A stretch of 56,910 nt of DNA from a virus (Duplodnaviria > Caudoviricetes). Under the pieces are notes generated by a model. That model searched no databases. It was not told where the DNA came from and was given only the letters and a program-made list of their open reading frames with translations. The stretch's first letter is position 1. Every line of letters begins with the position of its first letter. A program made the translations under genes and the position numbers. Below, piece after piece: positions 1,877 to 56,910 of the stretch. The stretch spans positions 1-56,910 of IMG/VR virus record IMGVR_UViG_3300014208_000049. One strand, given 5' to 3'.

Positions 1877-3147
1877 TATCGTTCTGGCTCCAATTCGTCG
1901 CTGTTCACATTTACCGCCATATAAGCAGTCCACTCTCTGCCCATTATTACTTTTATTATACCTGTTTGCCCCGCCCTGTTCTTGGCAAGCCTAAGTTCAC
2001 CCTTAGATGGAATTATCTCAATGCCAACATCGCAAGCATGTGAGACTTCCGAGGCATACCGAAAATTAAGCATTCCCTTGCCTTGTTCGCTTACTGCGGC
2101 ATTACTCTGTTGGCTCACCGCTATTACACAAGTATCTACGTCTGCTGCCAAGTTCTGCAACTCCATTGCGATTAAGGCCATGCGCTCATTTACGTTCTGT
2201 ATTCCTCTTACCTGTACGTTCTGGATAAAGTCAATAACGCAAACGTCCAACTTTCCATACGTCGCCTTGATGCCTCGCGCTCGCCGGCAGATGTCGTAAA
2301 GTTCGATTTCTTGGCGAAAGGTATGCAACGGCATCTCGGCAAGAAGCCCCACGGCCCCCTCAACCATGATCTCCTCGCGCTCGGTGAGCCTGCCCCGGAA
2401 TATCCTATTGGATGCGATTCCCAAATAGGCCCCTGCAAGTCGTGCGAAAAGCCACCGTTTCGGGATCTCGGCCGAAAAGTAGGCCGCCCTGCCGCCCCAC
2501 AATAGGGTCTGGACGACGCATTGGACCGCCAGGAGCGTCTTTCCTCCCGAGGTAGGTCCTCCTATGGCCCAAAGGAAAGAGGGCACCAGGCCGAACGTGG
2601 CGCGGTCCAGTGCCCTAATTCCGGTCGGGGGTCCGAGGGATTCCATCTTCGCGTTCCTGCGGATCATCGCCATGAACTCCTCGGCCTGATCCGGGGTGAT
2701 CCTGCCGTCCTCTGCGGCCCCTCCGATCTCGCGAACCGTTCCCAAGAAGTCCCTGACCGCCGATACACCCCCTTCTCGGACCAATTCCTGAATCCGGCGC
2801 TTCGTCCTGCGCTCCTTGAGCGATGCCACGGCCTCCATGATCGACGTAGGCGGGATGACGATCGGGTTCGGCCTCGCGATCAGGTCCGACATCGTGGCCC
2901 AGGAATCGACCCTCCCGCGGCGGGCAAGGGCTTCGCCTACGGCGCCGGGGTCAACTGCGCTGCCGGCGACTCGCACGTCGAGAATCGCGTTGAAAATGTC
3001 GCGGTTATCGATGGAAATGAAGTCCTCGGGCGACATGATCGAGACGATCCGCTCGGCCTCGCTGGCGCTTCGCATGGCGGCATCAAGCAAAGCGGCCTCG
3101 ACTTCGAGGAAATTCCTGGATTCGACGATGGGGGCGGGGGTCGTCAC
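1876..3147 (-). CDS. dnaB: DnaB-like replicative helicase
   Basis: DnaB-type N-terminal domain, Walker A GGPTSGGKT, VIDFIQ, SQ and AKNRAG motifs. Confidence 0.9.
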   Translation of the reverse strand: MTTPAPIVESRNFLEVEAALLDAAMRSASEAERIVSIMSPEDFISIDNRDIFNAILDVRVAGSAVDPGAVGEALARRGRVDSWATMSDLIARPNPIVIPPTSIMEAVASLKERRTKRRIQELVREGGVSAVRDFLGTVREIGGAAEDGRITPDQAEEFMAMIRRNAKMESLGPPTGIRALDRATFGLVPSFLWAIGGPTSGGKTLLAVQCVVQTLLWGGRAAYFSAEIPKRWLFARLAGAYLGIASNRIFRGRLTEREEIMVEGAVGLLAEMPLHTFRQEIELYDICRRARGIKATYGKLDVCVIDFIQNVQVRGIQNVNERMALIAMELQNLAADVDTCVIAVSQQSNAAVSEQGKGMLNFRYASEVSHACDVGIEIIPSKGELRLAKNRAGQTGIIKVIMGREWTAYMAVNVNSDELEPER

Positions 3148-3926
3148 CGCAGTTCCTCCAACTCTCTCCCCGCGGTATCCGTCCCTCGCGGCCCCCTGCC
3201 GCTACCGTCCGGCGGCGCGTTCAAATACGACTCGAATTTCGTCCCGAACAGTGTTTCCGGGCGAAGATATTCCTCCATGCTGGCATTGCCCGTCCACTTC
3301 GCAACCTGGTGGTCGATCACCTTTCGGAACTCTTCGATGCCGAATCCTTCCTTCCACCTTGCCGCGATGTGCCGCCTCGTTGCGCGTGACGTAGCGGAGA
3401 ATTTCTTCCCCGTCTTTTCGTTCAAGTATTCGATGATGTCCTTGGCCGGAATGATGTCCTCAAGTTCGCGCTCGTCCTGCTTCGGCGACACCTTCTCCTT
3501 CGGTGCCTTCTTTGACGCCTTCGCGTCCATCGGGATCTCGTAGTATTCCGCGAATTCTTGGACGATGGAGAGCTTGGGCAGGGTCCGCAGCGTGTTGGCG
3601 ATGCCGCATACCTGCTTGGAGTTGGAGGGTACAAAACTCGGTTCGTTGCGAAGCCCCTTGACGATCCAGATGACGGGACGTTCATAGCGTACCCAACCGG
3701 CGGCGATCAGGGCGTCCAGCCCTGCGTCGATGTCGGACGGCTCCGAGGTCTTCATGCGCTCGTACAGCGTCGTCTGGTAGAAGGTGAAGATGCACGGAAA
3801 ATTGCAGTCCCTTGATGTCCTGAGATTAAAGAATACGAGTTGCGTCACGGGGTCGAACGATTGGAATTCCGGGTCATCCCAAATGCACGAATAGATGGAC
3901 CGATACTGTCCCTTTTCAGGAGGCAT
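3144..3926 (-). CDS. Phage replication initiator with conserved phage C-terminal domain
   Basis: IIEYLNEKTGKKF...YLRPETLFGTKFESYLN (Phg_2220_C-like); directly upstream of DnaB. Confidence 0.85.
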   Translation of the reverse strand: MPPEKGQYRSIYSCIWDDPEFQSFDPVTQLVFFNLRTSRDCNFPCIFTFYQTTLYERMKTSEPSDIDAGLDALIAAGWVRYERPVIWIVKGLRNEPSFVPSNSKQVCGIANTLRTLPKLSIVQEFAEYYEIPMDAKASKKAPKEKVSPKQDERELEDIIPAKDIIEYLNEKTGKKFSATSRATRRHIAARWKEGFGIEEFRKVIDHQVAKWTGNASMEEYLRPETLFGTKFESYLNAPPDGSGRGPRGTDTAGRELEELR

Positions 3927-4908: not shown

Positions 4909-5592
4909 TCACAGCAGATACCCCATCTCCTGCATGAACTGAATCGGGTCTTTACTCCATTTTTTTCGGTTACACGTAGGGCAAAGTAATTGAACGTTTT
5001 TGTCTTCGTTCTTGCCGCCTTTGGCTATAGGGACCACGTGGTCAAGGTGGTAGCCAGTCTTCCGCAGATCGGCTTTGCAGACGGGGCATTTGCCCTTCTG
5101 TAGCATGAGCAACTTCTGGATTATGCCCTTGGATAACTTCCCTCCGTTCGCTTTCTTGCGGGCGCGATGATTTTGAGTGGCAATGTTCTTTTTATCTTTA
5201 TTCTTTAGCCTGTATCTTTCCTGAATCTCCCTGTACTCTGCTGGATGAGATTTGTACCATGCAGTAAACCATGATTTTGCTTTCTCTTTATTTGCTATGC
5301 GGTATGCAGAAGTATTGGCCTTGCTCCTCTCTGGGTTATCCTCTCTCCACTTTGCGCTCCTGGCTTTTATTGTCTCTCTATTCGCTGCGTAATAATTCGA
5401 GCTGTAAGTTTTGGCTTTCTCAACAAGTTCGTCACGTGAACAGGTATTTTTGTGTTTGTAGTTTCTGGATATGCCAATGCCTCTGCATTTTATTGAACAA
5501 TATTTATATTCCCTGCTCCCTTTATTCTTCCTTACCGTGACGCCACCGCAAATACAACATACATATTCCCTATACATTGTCTGCCTAAGCAT
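4909..5592 (-). CDS. HNH endonuclease (paralog 2, N-terminal zinc finger)
   Basis: CPVC...HLDHVVPIAKGGKNEDKNVQLLCPTCN; ends PIQFMQEMGYLL. Confidence 0.9.
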   Translation of the reverse strand: MLRQTMYREYVCCICGGVTVRKNKGSREYKYCSIKCRGIGISRNYKHKNTCSRDELVEKAKTYSSNYYAANRETIKARSAKWREDNPERSKANTSAYRIANKEKAKSWFTAWYKSHPAEYREIQERYRLKNKDKKNIATQNHRARKKANGGKLSKGIIQKLLMLQKGKCPVCKADLRKTGYHLDHVVPIAKGGKNEDKNVQLLCPTCNRKKWSKDPIQFMQEMGYLL

Positions 5593-6238
5593 TACTTGAC
5601 TTCCATCTGTTTATTTGAAGTGCCGCCAAGAAGACGGACCGCAAGGAATACATATTGTCCGCGCTGACATGTTCTATTCGTGGATTCCCCCCATCGCCAT
5701 CCAAGTACACGATGCAACCCTCTGGATACACATTGTCAAGACCCACGACAGAGTTGCCTATGAGTTCCCCGTATGCAGAAACCTGTACTTTATCGCCGGA
5801 TCGCTTCTCTCCGCTTTTGAGGTCGCAAACGGTGAATCTCCCGTCGATTAGCCCAGGGAGGTCTGGCGTTCCTGCGAACCGCCATGAGTTATGCCACATT
5901 GGTACTTCTGCTAACTGGACCACGGACTTGAAAGATGTTATTTTTACGAACTTCTTGTAGCTCTCAAGATACGCCGCGATCCCCTCGCCCAAGGTACTCT
6001 CGTCTAGCGTCCCATGCTCGAACCACGCGATCGCTTGGTGGACCCATGTGCCGACCTGCATCTTGAAATCCGCGTCCGAATTGCGCGGCCCGTACTGCTG
6101 AATCCCCTCGGCCTTGAGGATGCCCGTCACCGACGAAAGAATCTCGCCACCCTTGAGTCGGTACGTGTGCGTCTCTTCATCGAACGTAAGTTCGGCGTGA
6201 TGCGGCTGAAAAACAATCGTGTCGGGGATGGAGATCAA
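5585..6238 (-). CDS. PD-(D/E)XK family exonuclease
   Basis: FDEETHTY, SVTGIL, GTWVH, FAGTPD, DLKSG and QVSAY motifs. Confidence 0.85.
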   Translation of the reverse strand: MISIPDTIVFQPHHAELTFDEETHTYRLKGGEILSSVTGILKAEGIQQYGPRNSDADFKMQVGTWVHQAIAWFEHGTLDESTLGEGIAAYLESYKKFVKITSFKSVVQLAEVPMWHNSWRFAGTPDLPGLIDGRFTVCDLKSGEKRSGDKVQVSAYGELIGNSVVGLDNVYPEGCIVYLDGDGGNPRIEHVSADNMYSLRSVFLAALQINRWKSSNA

Positions 6239-6329: not shown

Positions 6330-6509
6330 TCATGTTGCGGCCTCCTTATCTCGCTTCAATTTCTCCATCGCCGCCTCGCGCAAGAAGTGGGAAATCGCGA
6401 TGCCCTGCTTCGCACACCATCGGGCGATGGATCTGTATTCCGCATCGTAAAAGTTCACGCTATGCGTCCAGTTCTTGCGAAGTTCTTCGGCTATGCGCGG
6501 GCGGCCCAT
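6330..6509 (-). CDS. Ribbon-helix-helix-like DNA-binding protein, 59 aa (not in ORF track)
   Basis: MGRPRIAEELRKNWTHSVNFYDAEYRSIARWCAKQGIAISHFLREAAMEKL; TAATG coupling to HNH stop. Confidence 0.7.
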   Translation of the reverse strand: MGRPRIAEELRKNWTHSVNFYDAEYRSIARWCAKQGIAISHFLREAAMEKLKRDKEAAT

Positions 6510-7183
6510 TAGAGTAAATACCCCATCTCTTGCATGAACTGGATCGGGTTCTTGTTAAATTTCTTCAGGTTGCAGGTAGGACATGTCAGTTGCATATTGG
6601 CATCCTCGTGCTTCCCGGCAGGTTCACCCGTGCGCGGTTTCAGTGGGACTATGTGGTCAAGATGGTAGCCGGTTTCCTTGAGGTCGGCCTTGCAGACAGG
6701 ACATCTTCCTTTCTGTACCTTCCACAACTTCTGAATGATGTCCTTGGAGAGTTTTCCGCCTTTATTTTCCAATGCGATCCGATCGTACTTTCTTATGCGT
6801 CTTTCCTCGCGATGTTCTTCGCGGTATCTTTTAACTTTTTCAGGGTTAGATTTTGCGTACTCCCTTGCCCGTGCCCTGTACTTCTCTGGATCGGAGGCGT
6901 ACATATTTCTCCGATACTCCGCCATCGCCTCTTTTCGTTTTAGATTGTACGCGGAGCAAGTAGCCAACATTCTTTCCCTATTGGCGGCTCTCCACGCCAA
7001 GGTTATTGCCTTGTCTTTGTCGGGATTGTTTTTACGCCACGCCCTGCACTTTTCCCTCTCTTGTTCAAGGTGTTCGGAGCGATACTTTTTGCTGTATGCC
7101 TTGATCTTGTCTGGGTTGTTGGCCTTCCATTTTCTGCACCGTTCTCTTTCGCGTTCCCTTCTCTCTTCTGGCGTCATAGCCAT
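6509..7183 (-). CDS. HNH endonuclease (paralog 3, RNA-leader associated)
   Basis: HLDHIVPL...GEPAGKHEDANMQLTCPTCN; GGAGG RBS before ATG 7183. Confidence 0.9.
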   Translation of the reverse strand: MAMTPEERRERERERCRKWKANNPDKIKAYSKKYRSEHLEQEREKCRAWRKNNPDKDKAITLAWRAANRERMLATCSAYNLKRKEAMAEYRRNMYASDPEKYRARAREYAKSNPEKVKRYREEHREERRIRKYDRIALENKGGKLSKDIIQKLWKVQKGRCPVCKADLKETGYHLDHIVPLKPRTGEPAGKHEDANMQLTCPTCNLKKFNKNPIQFMQEMGYLL

Positions 7184-7316
7184 CAAAGCCTCCGTCCGCC
7201 GGGTGTGACGGCACGCGGCGACAAAGGACGCAACGCTAGCGCGTGGCATCCACCGGAGGCTTTCCCGCTCGCTGTTTCGTAAGCACGCATGGGCCGTCAC
7301 CCTGCGAGAATATGAT
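7184..7316 (-). ncRNA. Conserved structured RNA leader, copy 1 (133 nt)
   Basis: 42/43-nt identical core with copy 2, compensatory change in closing stem, G-U pairs form only on the minus strand. Confidence 0.7.
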
Positions 7317-7322
7317 GTGCTT

Positions 7323-7351
7323 ACGTTACGCCGCATCTTCGGGATTGTCAA
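7323..7351 (-). promoter_or_regulatory. Sigma70 promoter for leader copy 1
   Basis: TTGACA-17-TAACGT. Confidence 0.7.
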
Positions 7352-7628
7352 GGAGTATTCGGTCAATTTCGGCACATAGCAGCGCCCCGGCAATCACGAG
7401 ACTCCTTAGCCTTCCGTGCTTCCTGCGCTTGTCGTGTTCCTCGACGAACGGGAACGCATCGCTGTCGCCGTATTCGTACACGCTCACGCCCTGAATCCCG
7501 TTGACTGCGTAGCACGCTGCGGCGAGGGCCAGTTCGTTGTCCGTGTGGCAACGGTCGTGCTCGGGATCGAATCCCTCCACGGTGATCTGCCGATCGCGTT
7601 CCTTGGTGATAAGTTCAATGCCGGTCAT
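7326..7628 (-). CDS. Conserved phage helical protein (MazG/dNTP-pyrophosphatase-like fold possible)
   Basis: ERDRQI..EG...EHD...ELALAAACYA...LVIAGALLCAEIDR is a recurrent phage family pattern. Confidence 0.55.
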   Translation of the reverse strand: MTGIELITKERDRQITVEGFDPEHDRCHTDNELALAAACYAVNGIQGVSVYEYGDSDAFPFVEEHDKRRKHGRLRSLVIAGALLCAEIDRILLDNPEDAA

Positions 7629-15867: not shown

Positions 15868-17555
15868 ACCGATACCCTCTCCCCGTCCCTCCACCTCCCG
15901 GCCAGCATTTCGTTCGGCGCGAGGTCTTGGGGAACGGTCGCCCATGCGAGGAACATCCCGCTTTTGTCCGTGGTCACGATGGCGACGGTGTGCCCGTGCT
16001 TGAGCGACAATCTCCGCGCCTCTTCGTTCGCGGCTTCGACGGCGGCGCCGACGAGTGTGTGAATCGTGCCCATCACGCGGCCCCTTTCTTGTGATTCCGG
16101 CATGGGAAGTCGGGGACACGAGCGAACACTTCCGCCTTCGGGTATCCCACTTCGCTCATGTCCTTGGTCGGATCTACCAGCCACCTGCACCCGCAATTTG
16201 TCTCCCACTTCGGGCCTTCCTCGATGGATTCCTTCATGAACGATCCGGGTAGCACCGGCCCCTTCTTCGGGAAAGTCTTCGGGCAGACGAACCGGCCCGA
16301 TCCGTTATCGACCACTTGCTCCCCGCACAGGCAGACCGCGTTCCCGTCGTCGGATTCGATGTGCCTGACTTTTTCTTCCGGAACGTCTCCGGGGTCCTTC
16401 GCGTCCAGCGGCCATTCGTACCAGGTGTATCCGCATCGCTTGCAATCCCTTTTCATGAGCGGATACTTCCCCTCGCGGCCGAGTAGGGCCCGCATGGCGT
16501 CTTGGAATTCGGTCTTGGCGTTCGTGGCGCCGCATTTTTTGCAAGCTCGGTTGACGGCGTAGCGGTTCAATTGAGTCCTCCTTTCGGCGGCGTGGTCGGG
16601 GCGTTTACGCCTTCGAGCATCGCCGTCATTTTTTCCGCCTGAATTTTCAGGATGCCGAGCATCACCAGCGGCATGATGTCGGGAGAATTCTCGATTAGGC
16701 GGAGAATCATAAACGCCGTAACATCGTCCGATGCGTGCATGAGAATTGATGCGTTTTCGCCGTCCTTGATGTTGTCGTCCTGCGTTGCCAGGATCACGTG
16801 CTGTCCCCGCGTCGGCTCGAACGTCCGGATCGTGCCGTCCTTGAGTTGCAGTACGATGTTGACGAATTTGGCTTCGTTGCCGTCGATCATTTTCCCTCTC
16901 CTTTCCCGTTGTTTTTTCTCACGGCGTCCGCAAACGGTTCCTTGAATTTCCCGGCGAAGTGTCTGCCGGATATTTGCTTGTCCGCTTTATTTCTTCCCGC
17001 GCATCGGTGACACAACCAGACCGGTGTGCATTTGCATTTCGGGTCCGCGATGCCCGAGAATGTCACGACTTTTTCTTTCTTTTCGTCTGCACTCACCGCT
17101 GCGCTCCCTCCACGCGGTCCGCCTCGAATTCTTCCTCTTCCTGGGTTGCGGGCCGCGTCCCCTTGCCGAGTTCCCAAACTCTTGAATGAATCTCTACGAT
17201 TTCGCCGGCGTTGTCCACCATGAATCCGCGGCTCACCGTGGCGCGTTCCTCAATGCTGACAAAGTGAATCAGGAGCGTCAACCAGATGAACAGCATCACG
17301 GCGGCGCCGATAATAACGGCAGCGTTCCGGTATCGTTCCCTCATCGAATTTCTCCTTTCTCTTTTAAGTCGTCGAGCTTTTTCTGCGCGTTCGTCTCCGT
17401 GCTGTAGCAGCCTCGCGTGAAGCAACTTTTCCCGTGCGGGTTCCAGTACCAGATGCGATACACGATCCCGCGGCGGCCGGTGGAGTCGCAAGGGACAACC
17501 TTGGGGGAGTAAAACACATCAAGATATATCGGCCTCATAAAGTTGCGCCCTTTCG

Positions 17556-18110
17556 TCATAGTAGATATCCTTGTTCCTGCATGAATTGAATCGGGTTCTT
17601 GTTGTGTTTTTTCATGTTGCACTTCGGGCAAGCGAGTTGTATATTCCTGTCCTCGTGTTTCCCGGCGGGTTCGCCCTTCCTTGGGATTAGCGGAACAATA
17701 TGGTCTACATGGAATCCTGTCTTGCGTAGGTCGGATTTGCAGATAGGACATTTGCCCTTCTGTAGTTTAAATAATTTGGCTATTATTCCGGGGGATAACC
17801 CCGCGGTGGTGTTTGTTCTCCGTTTGGCGTTTCTGTCTTTATATTTGTCGCGGTTTCTTGCTCTATGCGCGGCTGCGTATTCCTTCACTTTATCTGGGTT
17901 TGCCTTGGCCCATGCCGATTGGATGGCTCTTGCTCTTGCATTGTTCGCATAAAATGATTTTGCGTATTCACGGAGGCGTTCTAGGTTTTTTGCTCTATAT
18001 TTGGCATAGTATCCGGGGTTCTTCGCCCTCCATTCTGTCCAGTAATTCGGGTTGTTGGCTTTAAATGCCGCCTGGTGTGCCTTCTCTTTCTCTGGATCTT
18101 TTGCTGGCAT
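17556..18110 (-). CDS. HNH endonuclease (paralog 4, RNA-leader associated)
   Basis: HVDHIVPL...GEPAGKHEDRNIQLACPKCN; ends PIQFMQEQGYLL. Confidence 0.9.
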   Translation of the reverse strand: MPAKDPEKEKAHQAAFKANNPNYWTEWRAKNPGYYAKYRAKNLERLREYAKSFYANNARARAIQSAWAKANPDKVKEYAAAHRARNRDKYKDRNAKRRTNTTAGLSPGIIAKLFKLQKGKCPICKSDLRKTGFHVDHIVPLIPRKGEPAGKHEDRNIQLACPKCNMKKHNKNPIQFMQEQGYLL

Positions 18111-18243
18111 CAATACCCCCGTCCGCCGCATGGTGTCGGCCTGACGACGACAAAGGAGACTGGCACGGGCGCACCATCTCCACCGGGGATTCCGTTCGCT
18201 GTTTCGTAAGCACGCATGGGCCGACACCCTGCGAGAATGTGAT
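18111..18243 (-). ncRNA. Conserved structured RNA leader, copy 2 (133 nt)
   Basis: Same length, core and fold as 7184-7316; GGTGTCGGCC/GGCCGACACC stem. Confidence 0.7.
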
Positions 18244-18249
18244 ACAAAT

Positions 18250-18277
18250 ATGGTACCAATTTGGGGGTTCATGTCAA
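18250..18277 (-). promoter_or_regulatory. Sigma70 promoter for leader copy 2
   Basis: TTGACA-16-(TGn)TACCAT. Confidence 0.65.
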
Positions 18278-18328
18278 TTACTTTATTCTCCTGCGCTTTT
18301 TTTGCGGTTCTGCTTGGCGCGTTTCGCG

Positions 18329-18490
18329 TCAAATTTCCAGAACCGAAAAGTCGAACACTCCGAGGAATGAATCCGCGGCGTAGTCCTCCGCGGCTTCGCG
18401 GGTGGCAAATACGATGTTTTCCCCGTCCTCCTCCTGGGCGATAACGGCCGCGTCCGGATTGCCGAGTTGATGCGCTATTAGGATGAACAT
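18329..18490 (-). CDS. Small acidic protein, 53 aa (not in ORF track)
   Basis: AAAGGAG RBS; MFILIAHQLGNPDAAVIAQEEDGENIVFATREAAEDYAADSFLGVFDFSVLEI. Confidence 0.65.
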   Translation of the reverse strand: MFILIAHQLGNPDAAVIAQEEDGENIVFATREAAEDYAADSFLGVFDFSVLEI

Positions 18491-18891
18491 TTCGCTATGC
18501 TCCTTTCGTGTCCGGCGTGAGTTGCCATGCGCGAAAACCTTTCAACCATCGGGCCGTTGTGATGCCGGAAAAGTTGCAGATTGAGCAACCGGTCCCGGTG
18601 CATTTCGGACATTGAACCGTCTTGACTTTCGGCGCGTCGGTTGCGGGGATGATCTCCTTCCCTCCGAGGATCCGCGTACCCGTCCGCGTCTGAGCTTCCC
18701 ATCGGACGATAACGCGGCCATCGCGTATAAATGCCTTACGTGTCTCCTGCTCCATTTCAAGCCGGTTCATGGCGGGATAAACGTATTCCCTGGCGCCTTC
18801 CGGCCGCGAATATCCGATTACGTGATAGGTGAAAGATCGGCCCATCATTTCCCCTTTCTCCGCGTGTACGATGCGCGGCCCCGGATGGGTG

Positions 18892-31075: not shown

Positions 31076-31176
31076 GACAACAATAGAACATGGCATACTT
31101 CGGCAAAAAAGAGTTGACATCCTCGCCCCTTTGTGGTGTTAATGATGATACGTCATTAACCCACAAGGAGGCCGGG

Positions 31177-31983
31177 ATGGACTATTTCTCGGACCCGAAG
31201 GTATGTTGCATTAAGGGGTGCGACAAGGAAACCGTCGCGCTCGGGATGTGCGTGAATCACTGGCGGCGGAACCGAAAACACGGATCACCGATGGGCCGTC
31301 AGACAATGCAGTGGGTCTACCGTGGTTTGTCCGATGAGGAAAAGTTCTGGGCACAGGTTCAGAAAACCGATACCTGCTGGAACTGGACTTCAGGGAAAGA
31401 TCAAGACGGCTACGGCAGTTTCAAGGGGAGGGTGGGAGATCGCGTCTACCGAAGGGCGCACAGGTTCGCGTATGCCCTCGTCCACGGGCCGATCCCCGGT
31501 GGGATGTGCGTCTGCCACAAGTGCGACAACCCGCCCTGCGTCAACCCGGAGCACTTGTTCCTCGGGACCGAGAGCGACAACATGAACGACAAAATCTCCA
31601 AGGGTCGGCATCGTGCGGCCTTCGGGGAGGATGCCGGTCGCGCCATTCTCACCGAGGAGCAGGTCCGCGCCATCCTCATCGACCCTCGTCCGCACACGGC
31701 GATCGCCGCCGACTACGGGGTGAAGGGCGCCACGATCGGGAGCATCAAGCAGCGCGTGTCGTGGTCCCATATCTCGGGCATCGAACCGGTCCACGCGGTT
31801 CGCGTCAGCGCCCACAAGGGAGTCAGCGACAAGATCACGCCTGAGATAGTGGTCGGCATCCGCGCAAGCAACGAATCGTACAGCAGACTCGCGCAGCAGT
31901 TCGGCGTGAGCATCAGCACCATCTGTGACATCCGAAAGAAACGCTCTTGGGCACACGTAACCAGCCCTCAAGAAGGAGGATAG
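31177..31983 (+). CDS. HNH homing endonuclease (HNH_3-type) with duplicated C-terminal HTH
   Basis: CWNW...GYG...AHR...VCHKCDNPPCVNPEHLFLGT..DN..D. Confidence 0.9.
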   Translation: MDYFSDPKVCCIKGCDKETVALGMCVNHWRRNRKHGSPMGRQTMQWVYRGLSDEEKFWAQVQKTDTCWNWTSGKDQDGYGSFKGRVGDRVYRRAHRFAYALVHGPIPGGMCVCHKCDNPPCVNPEHLFLGTESDNMNDKISKGRHRAAFGEDAGRAILTEEQVRAILIDPRPHTAIAADYGVKGATIGSIKQRVSWSHISGIEPVHAVRVSAHKGVSDKITPEIVVGIRASNESYSRLAQQFGVSISTICDIRKKRSWAHVTSPQEGG

Positions 31984-56203: not shown

Positions 56204-56910
56204 TCATTTCTTCCACTCCCCGACCACCGTCACCTTGCGGCACCGAACTTTCGTGATGTCCGTGGCGTACACGACGATATCCTTCCGCGCCACGCGGCAC
56301 TCCAATACCCTCCCGTCGTTGTATCTCAACGCATCCTGCGGCGTGGGCGACAGGTGCAACCCGCCGCCGCATTGACGGGTCTTGTCGGGGTCGAAATCAG
56401 GGCAAACGACTTCACCCTCATATTTAATCTGGCCCGTATGGAAATCGCAGAGGGTATCGGGGCGCACGGATTTATAGAGGGTCAGCGGCTTATTTCCGTC
56501 GCCGAAAATTTCACAGAACGATTTGACCGAGTGTTGGAAAGTTTTCGTGCGGACCACGGTGACGCCGGTTCCGTGGCGCTTGATAGAGGGCTTGCAGTCT
56601 TGACAGATTATGCTGACGTAATGGTATGCCTCGATTTTTACGTTGTTCGACAATGAGCGGACAGAGCAGTTTTCGTGCGCCTTTACCTGCGACGATCCCC
56701 ACATCTCGCCGACCTGCGATGATTCCCGCATCACGCCGACCTGCGACGATCCCCGCATCTCGCCGACCTGCGACGAGTCCCACATCACGCCGACCTGCGA
56801 CGATCCCCGCATCACGCCGACCTGCGATGATTCCCGCATCACGCCGACCTGCGATGATTCCCGCATCACGCCGACCTGCGACGATCCCCGCATCTCGCCG
56901 ACCTGCGATG
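56204..56910 (-). CDS. 3' part of the origin-spanning repeat protein (DUF7666-like C-terminal domain)
   Basis: Repeats, then LYKSV...CGGGLHLSPTP..AL.Y...KVRC. Confidence 0.85.
   Translation of the reverse strand, partial: SQVGEMRGSSQVGVMRESSQVGVMRESSQVGVMRGSSQVGVMWDSSQVGEMRGSSQVGVMRESSQVGEMWGSSQVKAHENCSVRSLSNNVKIEAYHYVSIICQDCKPSIKRHGTGVTVVRTKTFQHSVKSFCEIFGDGNKPLTLYKSVRPDTLCDFHTGQIKYEGEVVCPDFDPDKTRQCGGGLHLSPTPQDALRYNDGRVLECRVARKDIVVYATDITKVRCRKVTVVGEWKK
56685..56910. repeat. 27-bp tandem repeat (same array as 1-175)
   Basis: About 8 consecutive units. Confidence 0.95.

Follow-up and report, generated by a model that had tools for sequence, protein, structure and literature searches.

Free-standing homing endonucleases are costly passengers of phage genomes, and we know of little on how their expression is restrained outside the T4 group. 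Here we analyze a conserved leader RNA in front of two HNH endonuclease genes, A and B, of a 56,910-bp record of a tailed virus (IMGVR_UViG_3300014208_000049; Caudoviricetes), the whole of which is termed the window. According to the sections of PMC2988022 dealing with them, the homing endonuclease genes I-TevI, I-TevII, I-TevIII, segB and mobE (Aeh1) are regulated by RNA structures that sequester the ribosome-binding site (RBS), and these T4-type structures are single local hairpins, which are bypassed by an internal late promoter. Within the bounds of that account, several parallels are suggested: the window likewise presents a phage gene of the homing type, with a good Shine-Dalgarno sequence (SD) about 5-8 nt from the AUG that is paired in a stable RNA, and the HNH paralogs that lack the leader overlap the stop of the upstream gene, as does mobE (UAAUGA). 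The helix that pairs the SD, H2, can be formed in 5/5 sequences of the leader family and is part of the minimum free energy (MFE) fold in 3/5. In contrast to the T4-type hairpins, the leader is a multi-helix structure of about 135 nt with a long-range stem and a distant anti-SD; it also constitutes a sequence family found across unrelated contigs and, in one of them (L050), before a gene that does not code for an endonuclease. This comparison is one of function. No internal promoter that would bypass the fold was detected: the only sigma-70-type site lies upstream of the whole of leader A, with none in B, though the phage's own late promoter type may differ.

A second parallel comes from translational coupling in plasmids, namely R1 tap/repA with CopA, and the repY-repZ and repBA systems of IncI1/IncB, where, in the portion of PMC8053102 concerned with them, the stop of a leader open reading frame (ORF) overlaps or adjoins the main start, the RBS is sequestered, and a hairpin loop forms a long-range pairing or pseudoknot with a segment near the RBS. 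At the locus studied here the stop/start overlap is present; a conserved leader-ORF start is not, and, by a thermodynamic estimate, neither is an accessible one. Unlike in the plasmids, the start of the upstream ORF (uORF) is buried, lost in one homolog (L049) and non-homologous in another (L050), no antisense promoter was found in the leaders, and the gene belongs to a phage rather than to a replicon control region. The third class comprises the SD-sequestering pseudoknotted riboswitches, in which the anti-SD is part of a conserved structured domain with covarying helices and invariant joining strands. Compared with these as a general class only, the leader differs in having no Rfam match, no known ligand and very few members. 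We regard the leader as a new and rare RNA motif, though one whose functional kind is already known.

We give a probability of roughly 55% to the reading that the leader is a conserved structured 5' untranslated region (UTR) that limits translation of the HNH gene by pairing its SD. The homolog set consists of five sequences: the two copies of the window (A and B) and three metagenome contigs (L048, L049 and L050), which were recovered in a scan for the invariant 3' motifs; L050 is the same as L053 of the viral collection, which was found in a scan of viral contigs. In L048 and L049 the leader stands before an HNH gene whose catalytic C-terminal part resembles that of B, and L049 is identical to L048 from alignment column 47 onward, up to at least 400 nt into the ORF. 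Only the long-range stem H1 and the 3' module are common to L050, which has a different 5' block and precedes a gene of 176-180 aa without a Pfam match, with a likely TTG start 6 nt after GGAGG. Between B and L048, identity is 92% in the leader as against 61% in the first 400 nt of the ORF, and between A and B it is 83% as against 64%. The alignment of A and B opens with a 52-nt 5' block that is 94% identical and continues into a variable middle. The G+C content of the four HNH leaders is 62-65%, compared with 43-49% in their ORFs, and stop codons are scarce over the three frames (0 in leader A, 2 in leader B and 0-3 in all leaders).

RNAalifold, applied to the five sequences, yields a local 5' hairpin, the small hairpin Ha and a three-way junction closed by H2, with the hairpins H4 and H5 inside it. 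H2 joins a CCUCC-type anti-SD to the GGRGG SD, which lies about 65 nt further downstream and 5 nt before the start codon, and does so in all five sequences. H1 crosses H2, its 3' arm being the loop of H5. Taking H1, Ha, H4 and H2 together (36 pairs), 93.3% of 178 cells are paired, as against 85.3±1.4% in shuffles, and 13 of the 36 pairs are changed on both sides, as against 5.3±1.7 (0/500 shuffles reach either value). These both-side changes are distributed as 2/10 pairs in H1, 4/6 in Ha, 2/10 in H2 and 5/10 in H4. When the partners are slid by 1-3 columns as a register control, the fraction of paired cells falls to 35-50%, with at most three both-side changes. The H1 arms of L050 (GGGAUGGCAGC and GCUGCCAUCACC) pair despite its different 5' block; the pair count of H1 is too low for this sequence, since MAFFT places the arm one column out of register. 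As several of the pairs are G-U, the fold is confined to the sense strand of the HNH gene, that is, to the RNA. The conservation of the leader, its strand-specific pairing with G-U pairs, the compensatory changes in each of the four helices and where the SD and start codon lie are observations. The leader being far better conserved than the gene behind it, with substitutions that track the pairs, we favor a structured leader that acts as an RNA element. The local 5' hairpin (columns 11-31) was dropped as a conserved part; its pairs do not covary, and both L049 and L050 have a broken lower stem.

The features of the window had been noticed before, in an earlier note that a model made from the letters alone, and its account of the RNA fares unevenly. 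It had described a long closing stem over the AGGGTG of the uORF, and this is borne out: GGGTGWCGGCC pairs with GGCCGWCACC, with a T-A to A-T double change between the copies. It had further proposed an anti-SD hairpin, termed H3 here, in which CCTTTGTCGYCG complements CGGCGGACGGRGG. All 12 of its pairs can form, with 100% of cells paired in 5/5 sequences, but 10 of the 12 never vary and there is no covariation, so that on the sequence H3 is a possible hairpin untried by evolution. H3 and H2 compete for the SD, and H3 and H4 for two closing pairs. The SD-masking helix that does covary is not H3 but the CCUCC-type H2, which the note had missed. Coordinates are collected in the table below.

Table. 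Coordinates of the leader RNAs, their helices, the uORFs, the promoter-like sites and the genes (window positions unless a contig is named)
Feature	Position	Strand	Basis or remark
Leader A, conserved 5' UTR of HNH gene A, running from ATCACATTCTCGC up to the base that precedes the HNH ATG	18111..18243	-	covariance model R1, 129.3 bits over 18105-18243
Leader B, conserved 5' UTR of HNH gene B	7184..7316	-	covariance model R1, 163.7 bits over 7178-7316
H1 5' arm in A (GGTGTCGGCC), contains the SD-like GGGTG of the uORF	18219..18228	-	sequence and pair counts
H1 3' arm in A (GGCCGACACC), within the H5/H3 hairpin loop	18132..18141	-	pair counts
H1 5' arm in B (GGGTGACGGC)	7293..7302	-	pair counts
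H1 3' arm in B (GCCGTCACACC, one bulged A)	7202..7212	-	pair counts
Ha hairpin in A, invariant AAACA in the loop	18194..18211	-	4/6 pairs changed on both sides
Ha hairpin in B	7267..7284	-	pair counts
H2 5' arm in A, the anti-SD (AUCCCCG)	18184..18190	-	RNAalifold, pair counts
H2 3' arm in A (CGGGGGU), includes the HNH SD GGGGG at 18116-18120	18115..18121	-	pair counts
H2 5' arm in B, the anti-SD (AAAGCCUCCG)	7254..7263	-	pair counts
H2 3' arm in B (CGGAGGCUUU), includes the HNH SD GGAGG at 7189-7193	7185..7194	-	pair counts
H4 variable hairpin in A	18155..18181	-	both-side changes in 5/10 pairs; all cells (100%) paired
H4 variable hairpin in B	7226..7251	-	pair counts
Invariant CCUUUGUCGYCG in A, 5' strand of H3 and H5	18145..18156	-	alignment
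Invariant CGGCGGACGGRGG in A, 3' strand of H3/H5, SD included	18116..18128	-	alignment
uORF A, MRAYETANGIPGGDGAPVPVSFVVVRPTPCGGRGY, then stop	18110..18217	-	35 codons and TGA; TGATG with the HNH ATG; start opening 14.0 kcal/mol
uORF B, MRAYETASGKASGGCHALALRPLSPRAVTPGGRRL, then stop	7183..7290	-	35 codons and TGA; TGATG with the HNH ATG; start opening 14.4 kcal/mol
Sigma-70-like promoter upstream of leader A: TTGACA, 16-nt spacer, TACCAT, TG before the second hexamer	18250..18277	-	10/12 matches
TTGACA hexamer upstream of leader B, spaced from H1 as in A	7346..7351	-	-10 candidate TAACGT weak
HNH endonuclease gene A	17556..18110	-	184 aa; PF01844, E = 7.4e-11
HNH endonuclease gene B	6509..7183	-	224 aa; PF01844, E = 6.6e-08
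Alternative upstream sequence of HNH relatives	L004 ~2780-2860, L005 ~2830-2905, L009 ~2770-2850, L007/L008 upstream of HNH start

Taking these findings together, we propose that HNH genes A and B might each be expressed from an independently transcribed mRNA with a 5' UTR of about 135 nt, which would begin some 13-15 nt upstream of H1, from the TTGACA promoter. A, B and L050 each have a TTGACA hexamer, placed 42-47 nt upstream of H1, and conservation of the leader starts at ATCAY, about where a transcript from such a promoter would begin. In the folded UTR, H1 would act as the long-range closing stem that joins the 5' end to the segment just upstream of the SD, Ha would form a small hairpin whose loop is rich in A, H4 would be the hairpin that varies, and H2 would hold the SD (GGRGG) against its CCUCC-type anti-SD. 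The fold is thereby likely to lower or gate translation of the nuclease and, likewise, of the unrelated gene in L050. The crossing of H1 and H2 might reflect a single pseudoknot, in which H1 would lock the fold, or two alternative states of a switch, and both fit the energies. Were it a switch, formation of H1 would break H5, the hairpin stacked under H2, so that H1 might offer an open state, and some signal could then shift the balance of the fold.

Nested folding places the two states 2.5-8.4 kcal/mol apart in the five sequences, with the H1-type fold being the MFE in two and the H2-type fold in three. The H1-type fold prevails in leader A (-53.4 vs -49.4 kcal/mol with H2 forced) and L050 (-56.3 vs -53.8), and the H2-type fold in leader B (-62.7 vs -56.1 with H1 forced), L048 (-64.2 vs -55.8) and L049 (-63.1 vs -55.4); the forced-H1 energies of A and L050 were left unused, the forced columns being slightly out of register there. 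Opening the HNH start costs 16.1 kcal/mol in B, 15.2 in L048 and 11.0 in L049, compared with a median of 9.5 for a background of 25 starts. Leader B also folds better than its shuffles (z = -2.43; 3/200 as good).

Several points weigh against the proposal that the leader limits HNH translation by masking the SD. In the nested folds of A and L050 the SD is unmasked, at opening costs of 6.6 and 2.6 kcal/mol that lie below the background median, because H1 outcompetes H2 in these two sequences; by this modeling, masking in them would require the putative pseudoknot. The background itself is crude, being made up of the first start codon of long ORFs in the window. Leader A folds no better than its shuffles (z = -0.29; 71/200 fold as well), and the scan for sigma-70-type promoters called none for copy B. 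The comparative evidence comes from five sequences only, two of which (L048 and L049) are near-identical and another two (A and B) paralogs in one genome, and the structure was derived from these same five, which makes the shuffle and sliding controls lean toward structure. No signal that would switch the fold was identified.

Among the alternatives, the one that survives best is a leader-peptide-coupled attenuator, in which ribosomes translating the uORF would unwind the SD mask, stop at the UGAUG and re-initiate on the HNH AUG, so that synthesis of the nuclease would depend on access to the uORF start, as controlled by H1 or the local hairpin. We consider this unlikely. It is close to what the earlier note had inferred, namely a two-state translational attenuator that keeps a toxic nuclease off until a ribosome, protein or antisense RNA remodels the leader. 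The note was correct that both uORFs begin MRAYETA and comprise 35 codons and a TGA that shares its A with the HNH ATG. It was also right that the block common to the two, CCTTTGTCG, is read in different frames (TCC TTT GTC G in A and CCT TTG TCG in B), so that the exit frame is kept while the peptides differ. The alignment of A and B contains one 3-nt and three 1-nt indels, and the exit frame is the same in both because these four net to zero. The restored frame speaks for coupling. In its favor, too, the uORF ATG, a GGGTG 7 nt upstream of it and the TGATG are intact in A, B and L048, three of the four leaders with the common 5' block. In L050, too, an ATG ORF of 30 codons crosses the structure, ending 8 nt past the likely TTG start, and the leaderless HNH paralogs of the window and of a related phage record (G001) all overlap an upstream stop, which makes stop-start coupling the usual arrangement of this HNH family. 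Further, R1 tap/repA and the repY-repZ and repBA systems of IncI1/IncB, as far as they are covered in PMC8053102, provide known analogues.

The substitutions nonetheless argue for the RNA and not the peptide. In the uORF span B and L048 differ at eight positions, six non-synonymous and two synonymous, a ratio that gives no sign of peptide protection. Viewed as RNA, the same eight differences fall into four that compensate each other within two pairs (columns 34/49 in Ha and 68/90 in H4), two that exchange Watson-Crick and wobble pairing (36/47 and 60/130) and two at unpaired positions, so that six of the eight preserve RNA pairs or wobbles. The check that the note had suggested, conservation of frame and junction among homologs, finds the TGATG in L048 and L049 as in A and B, but not in L050, and the uORF ATG in 3/5 sequences. 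L049 has ATC ATA where the others have ATG CGT, leaving an in-frame GTG without an SD. These changes fall within the terminal 46 nt of a contig that, to judge by its name, has a coverage of 3, and an assembly artefact is possible, though one of them makes the Ha hairpin perfect, which suggests real variation. The ORF of L050 is a different one, with a non-homologous ATG that has no SD and an end that lies 8 nt inside the downstream gene, without TGATG. Any ORF leaving the stop-free core of this sequence would end near the start codon, since all frames hit stops within about 12 nt past the SD.

Chance is a further consideration against coupling. An ATG-initiated ORF of at least 30 codons that ends on the fixed TGATG arises in 11.5% (A) and 7.3% (B) of 5000 dinucleotide shuffles each, and the retention of the frame contributes a further chance of only about 1 in 3; the uORF exceeds chance only marginally. 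The region of its start is costly to open (12.6-14.4 kcal/mol, compared with the median of 9.5 for the 25 starts, of which one is higher, at 17.4), and neither leader contains a plus-strand sigma-70-like site from which an antisense RNA might be made. The likeliest explanation of the uORF is that of an incidental open frame in a segment rich in G+C and with hardly any stops, and it looks like a by-product of the leader fold. Hence, of the two-state attenuator, the structured leader that covers the SD is upheld, with both H1 and the SD-masking helix kept by compensation, while the uORF as a conserved working part, whether coding or coupling, is not supported in view of the non-synonymous excess, the lost ATG of L049, the different ORF of L050 and the buried start.

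A second alternative is that the leader is a sensor of a ligand or protein, either a riboswitch or a translational operator, in which the invariant strands at the H1/Ha/H4 three-way junction (the joining strands CCGGUGG, CCUUUGUCG and CGGCGGACGG, together with the AAACA loop) would bind a metabolite or protein, and binding would decide if the anti-SD engages the SD. Stretches that never vary, being single-stranded or able to pair with either of two partners, do lie beside freely varying, compensated helices, as is typical of aptamers and operators; the crossing of H1 and H2 recalls pseudoknotted riboswitches, and the module is common to genes of different function (HNH and the L050 gene). Against this, there is no Rfam family match, no ligand or binding protein can be put forward as a candidate, and only five examples came out of pattern scans of viral, metagenome and genome contigs and of 151 genomes searched with the covariance model R1. 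Moreover, the ability of the invariant strands to form H5/H3 among themselves accounts for their conservation with no ligand needed. A sensor is thus quite improbable, and so is its most far-reaching version, in which the leader would be an undescribed pseudoknotted sensor RNA of uncultured groundwater phages that times selfish nucleases and an early replication-region gene by an intracellular signal. Least convincing, and very unlikely, is a static leader, without alternative functional states, that would reduce translation of a costly gene to a constitutive trickle or stabilize the mRNA by its closing stem near the 5' end. In its favor, H1 encloses nearly all of the UTR, at about 13-15 nt from the presumed 5' end, and its strength relative to H2 varies widely among homologs, unlike in a tuned switch. 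Against it, H1 conflicts with H5 and H2 in segments or topology and yet both H1 and H2 are kept by compensation, which suggests a pseudoknot or switch, and the invariant segments have two possible partners.

Returning to the structured leader that masks the SD, it takes the form of a portable promoter-plus-leader module, which is better conserved than the genes behind it and common to a nuclease and an unrelated gene. The idea of a toxic nuclease kept off is accordingly too narrow, as the module also precedes the non-HNH gene of L050. If the fold indeed throttles or gates translation, it would represent a new class of cis-regulatory RNA in phages and a compact natural part for masking an SD. 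A caution also follows: a G+C-rich structured leader can yield a long uORF with a neat TGATG at a probability of about 10%, and such a uORF can persist without function.

The window, which encodes a terminase, portal, major head protein, RecT, DnaB-like helicase and a tRNA, has four paralogous HNH endonuclease genes, all on the minus strand (1214-1933, 4909-5592, and the genes B and A). The earlier note's mention of both HNH leaders is right as to the number of leaders, but two of the four paralogs have none: a BLAST comparison of the leader with the whole record returned A and B and, otherwise, one chance 14-mer. In the leaderless gene at 1214-1933, the ATG at 1876 sits in a TAATG with the helicase stop, and in that at 4909-5592 the ATG at 5592 lies 8 nt before the stop of the upstream gene (an 8-nt overlap). 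In the closest related record, G001, whose head protein is 89% identical, both HNH starts overlap an upstream stop. The window has yet another HNH endonuclease gene, the fifth, which belongs to another family (phrog_59, E = 2.2e-40) and directly follows the major head protein gene on the plus strand (31090-31983).

The HNH reading frame remains open upstream of the ATG through the leader, for 128 codons in A (17556-18494, minus strand) and 70 codons in B (6509-7393, minus strand), and gene callers could therefore produce over-long HNH annotations with a spurious Arg/Cys-rich N-terminus. That the leader is such an N-terminal extension was rejected: the frame is open in A, B, L048 and L049, but the spacing of SD and ATG marks the annotated start. 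A group I intron carrying the HNH ORF was likewise discarded, there being no Rfam intron match and the upstream genes ending in their own stops; small complete ORFs directly follow the HNH genes on the 3' side, and the flanking genes are unsplit. A transcription terminator or attenuator was dropped as well: only H4 with a weak, U-poor tail was flagged, and no U-run follows H5.

The five leaders score 118-169 bits with R1, and the next best match in 83 sources reaches 13.4 bits. A blastn search with 17500-18500 found no copy in phage records, none occurred at 32 loci of HNH relatives from viral contigs, and none was seen by BLAST in 5/5 related phage records (fragments chosen by a major head protein of 60-89% identity) or by R1 in G001. 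An exact 22-mer of the 5' block had no match in viral contigs, and a codon-degenerate pattern of that block had none in metagenome contigs; two further patterns, matching 28 and 6 stretches of viral contigs, gave no member except L053. A looser three-block pattern matched at least 120 stretches of genome contigs, and the 129 pattern matches screened left 9 scoring 2 or more. The only new three-motif loci from these contigs, L121 and L163, are identical to copies B and A, respectively; they are the same phage contig (G007:C17) inside a 1.3-Mb metagenome-assembled genome bin. This contig is either a binned phage contig or a hint of the host. Among 151 genomes related to G007, R1 gave a match in G007 alone and in none of the 150 others. 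One candidate, L174, was rejected as a member, since it resembles only the H5/SD part (11.5 bits), and a search by protein words, for which the leader was translated in the frame of the HNH gene, returned 3 candidates, none of them scoring. Contigs of two DNA runs match both leaders, and these runs add no leader variants, as the listed pieces have 0 differing letters. Rfam matched only the tRNA in the window at the gathering threshold, and over 17950-18400, at E up to 10, gave four chance-level matches to eukaryotic long noncoding RNAs or microRNAs (E of 1.4 or more). A full-text literature search, supplements being outside its reach, found no description of such a leader motif.

A few observations concern neighboring sequences. 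HNH relatives in other viral contigs share a different sequence before the start, in which GGCCGGCCAGCCTTGCATTGC and, further on, CAATGC are followed by GAGGGTG and the ATG; this may be a second leader family of the same HNH clade. In L050 an HNH-type gene without a leader of its own (2913-3539, plus strand) lies about 1 kb downstream of the leader-bearing non-HNH gene. Downstream of HNH gene B there are a 59-aa ORF and a 217-aa ORF without a Pfam match (6330-6509 and 5585-6238, both minus strand), and the order of HNH gene, small ORFs and a 217-aa-type ORF recurs in G001. One contig of the DNA run X2 joins 6485 to 7415 and skips the 929 nt between them (6486-7414), which contain HNH B together with its leader and the TTGACA. 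This contig may represent a variant that lacks the HNH B cassette, a weak hint given the likeness threshold of 85, the 36 nt on its shorter side and the other sequence that may lie between the two sides. Finally, tandem 27-nt repeats occur at both ends of the record (1-255 and 56621-56902; 9 copies of one family, 60-100% alike). The record probably breaks inside one repeat array, and the end repeats could mean a circularly permuted genome or a terminal repeat.

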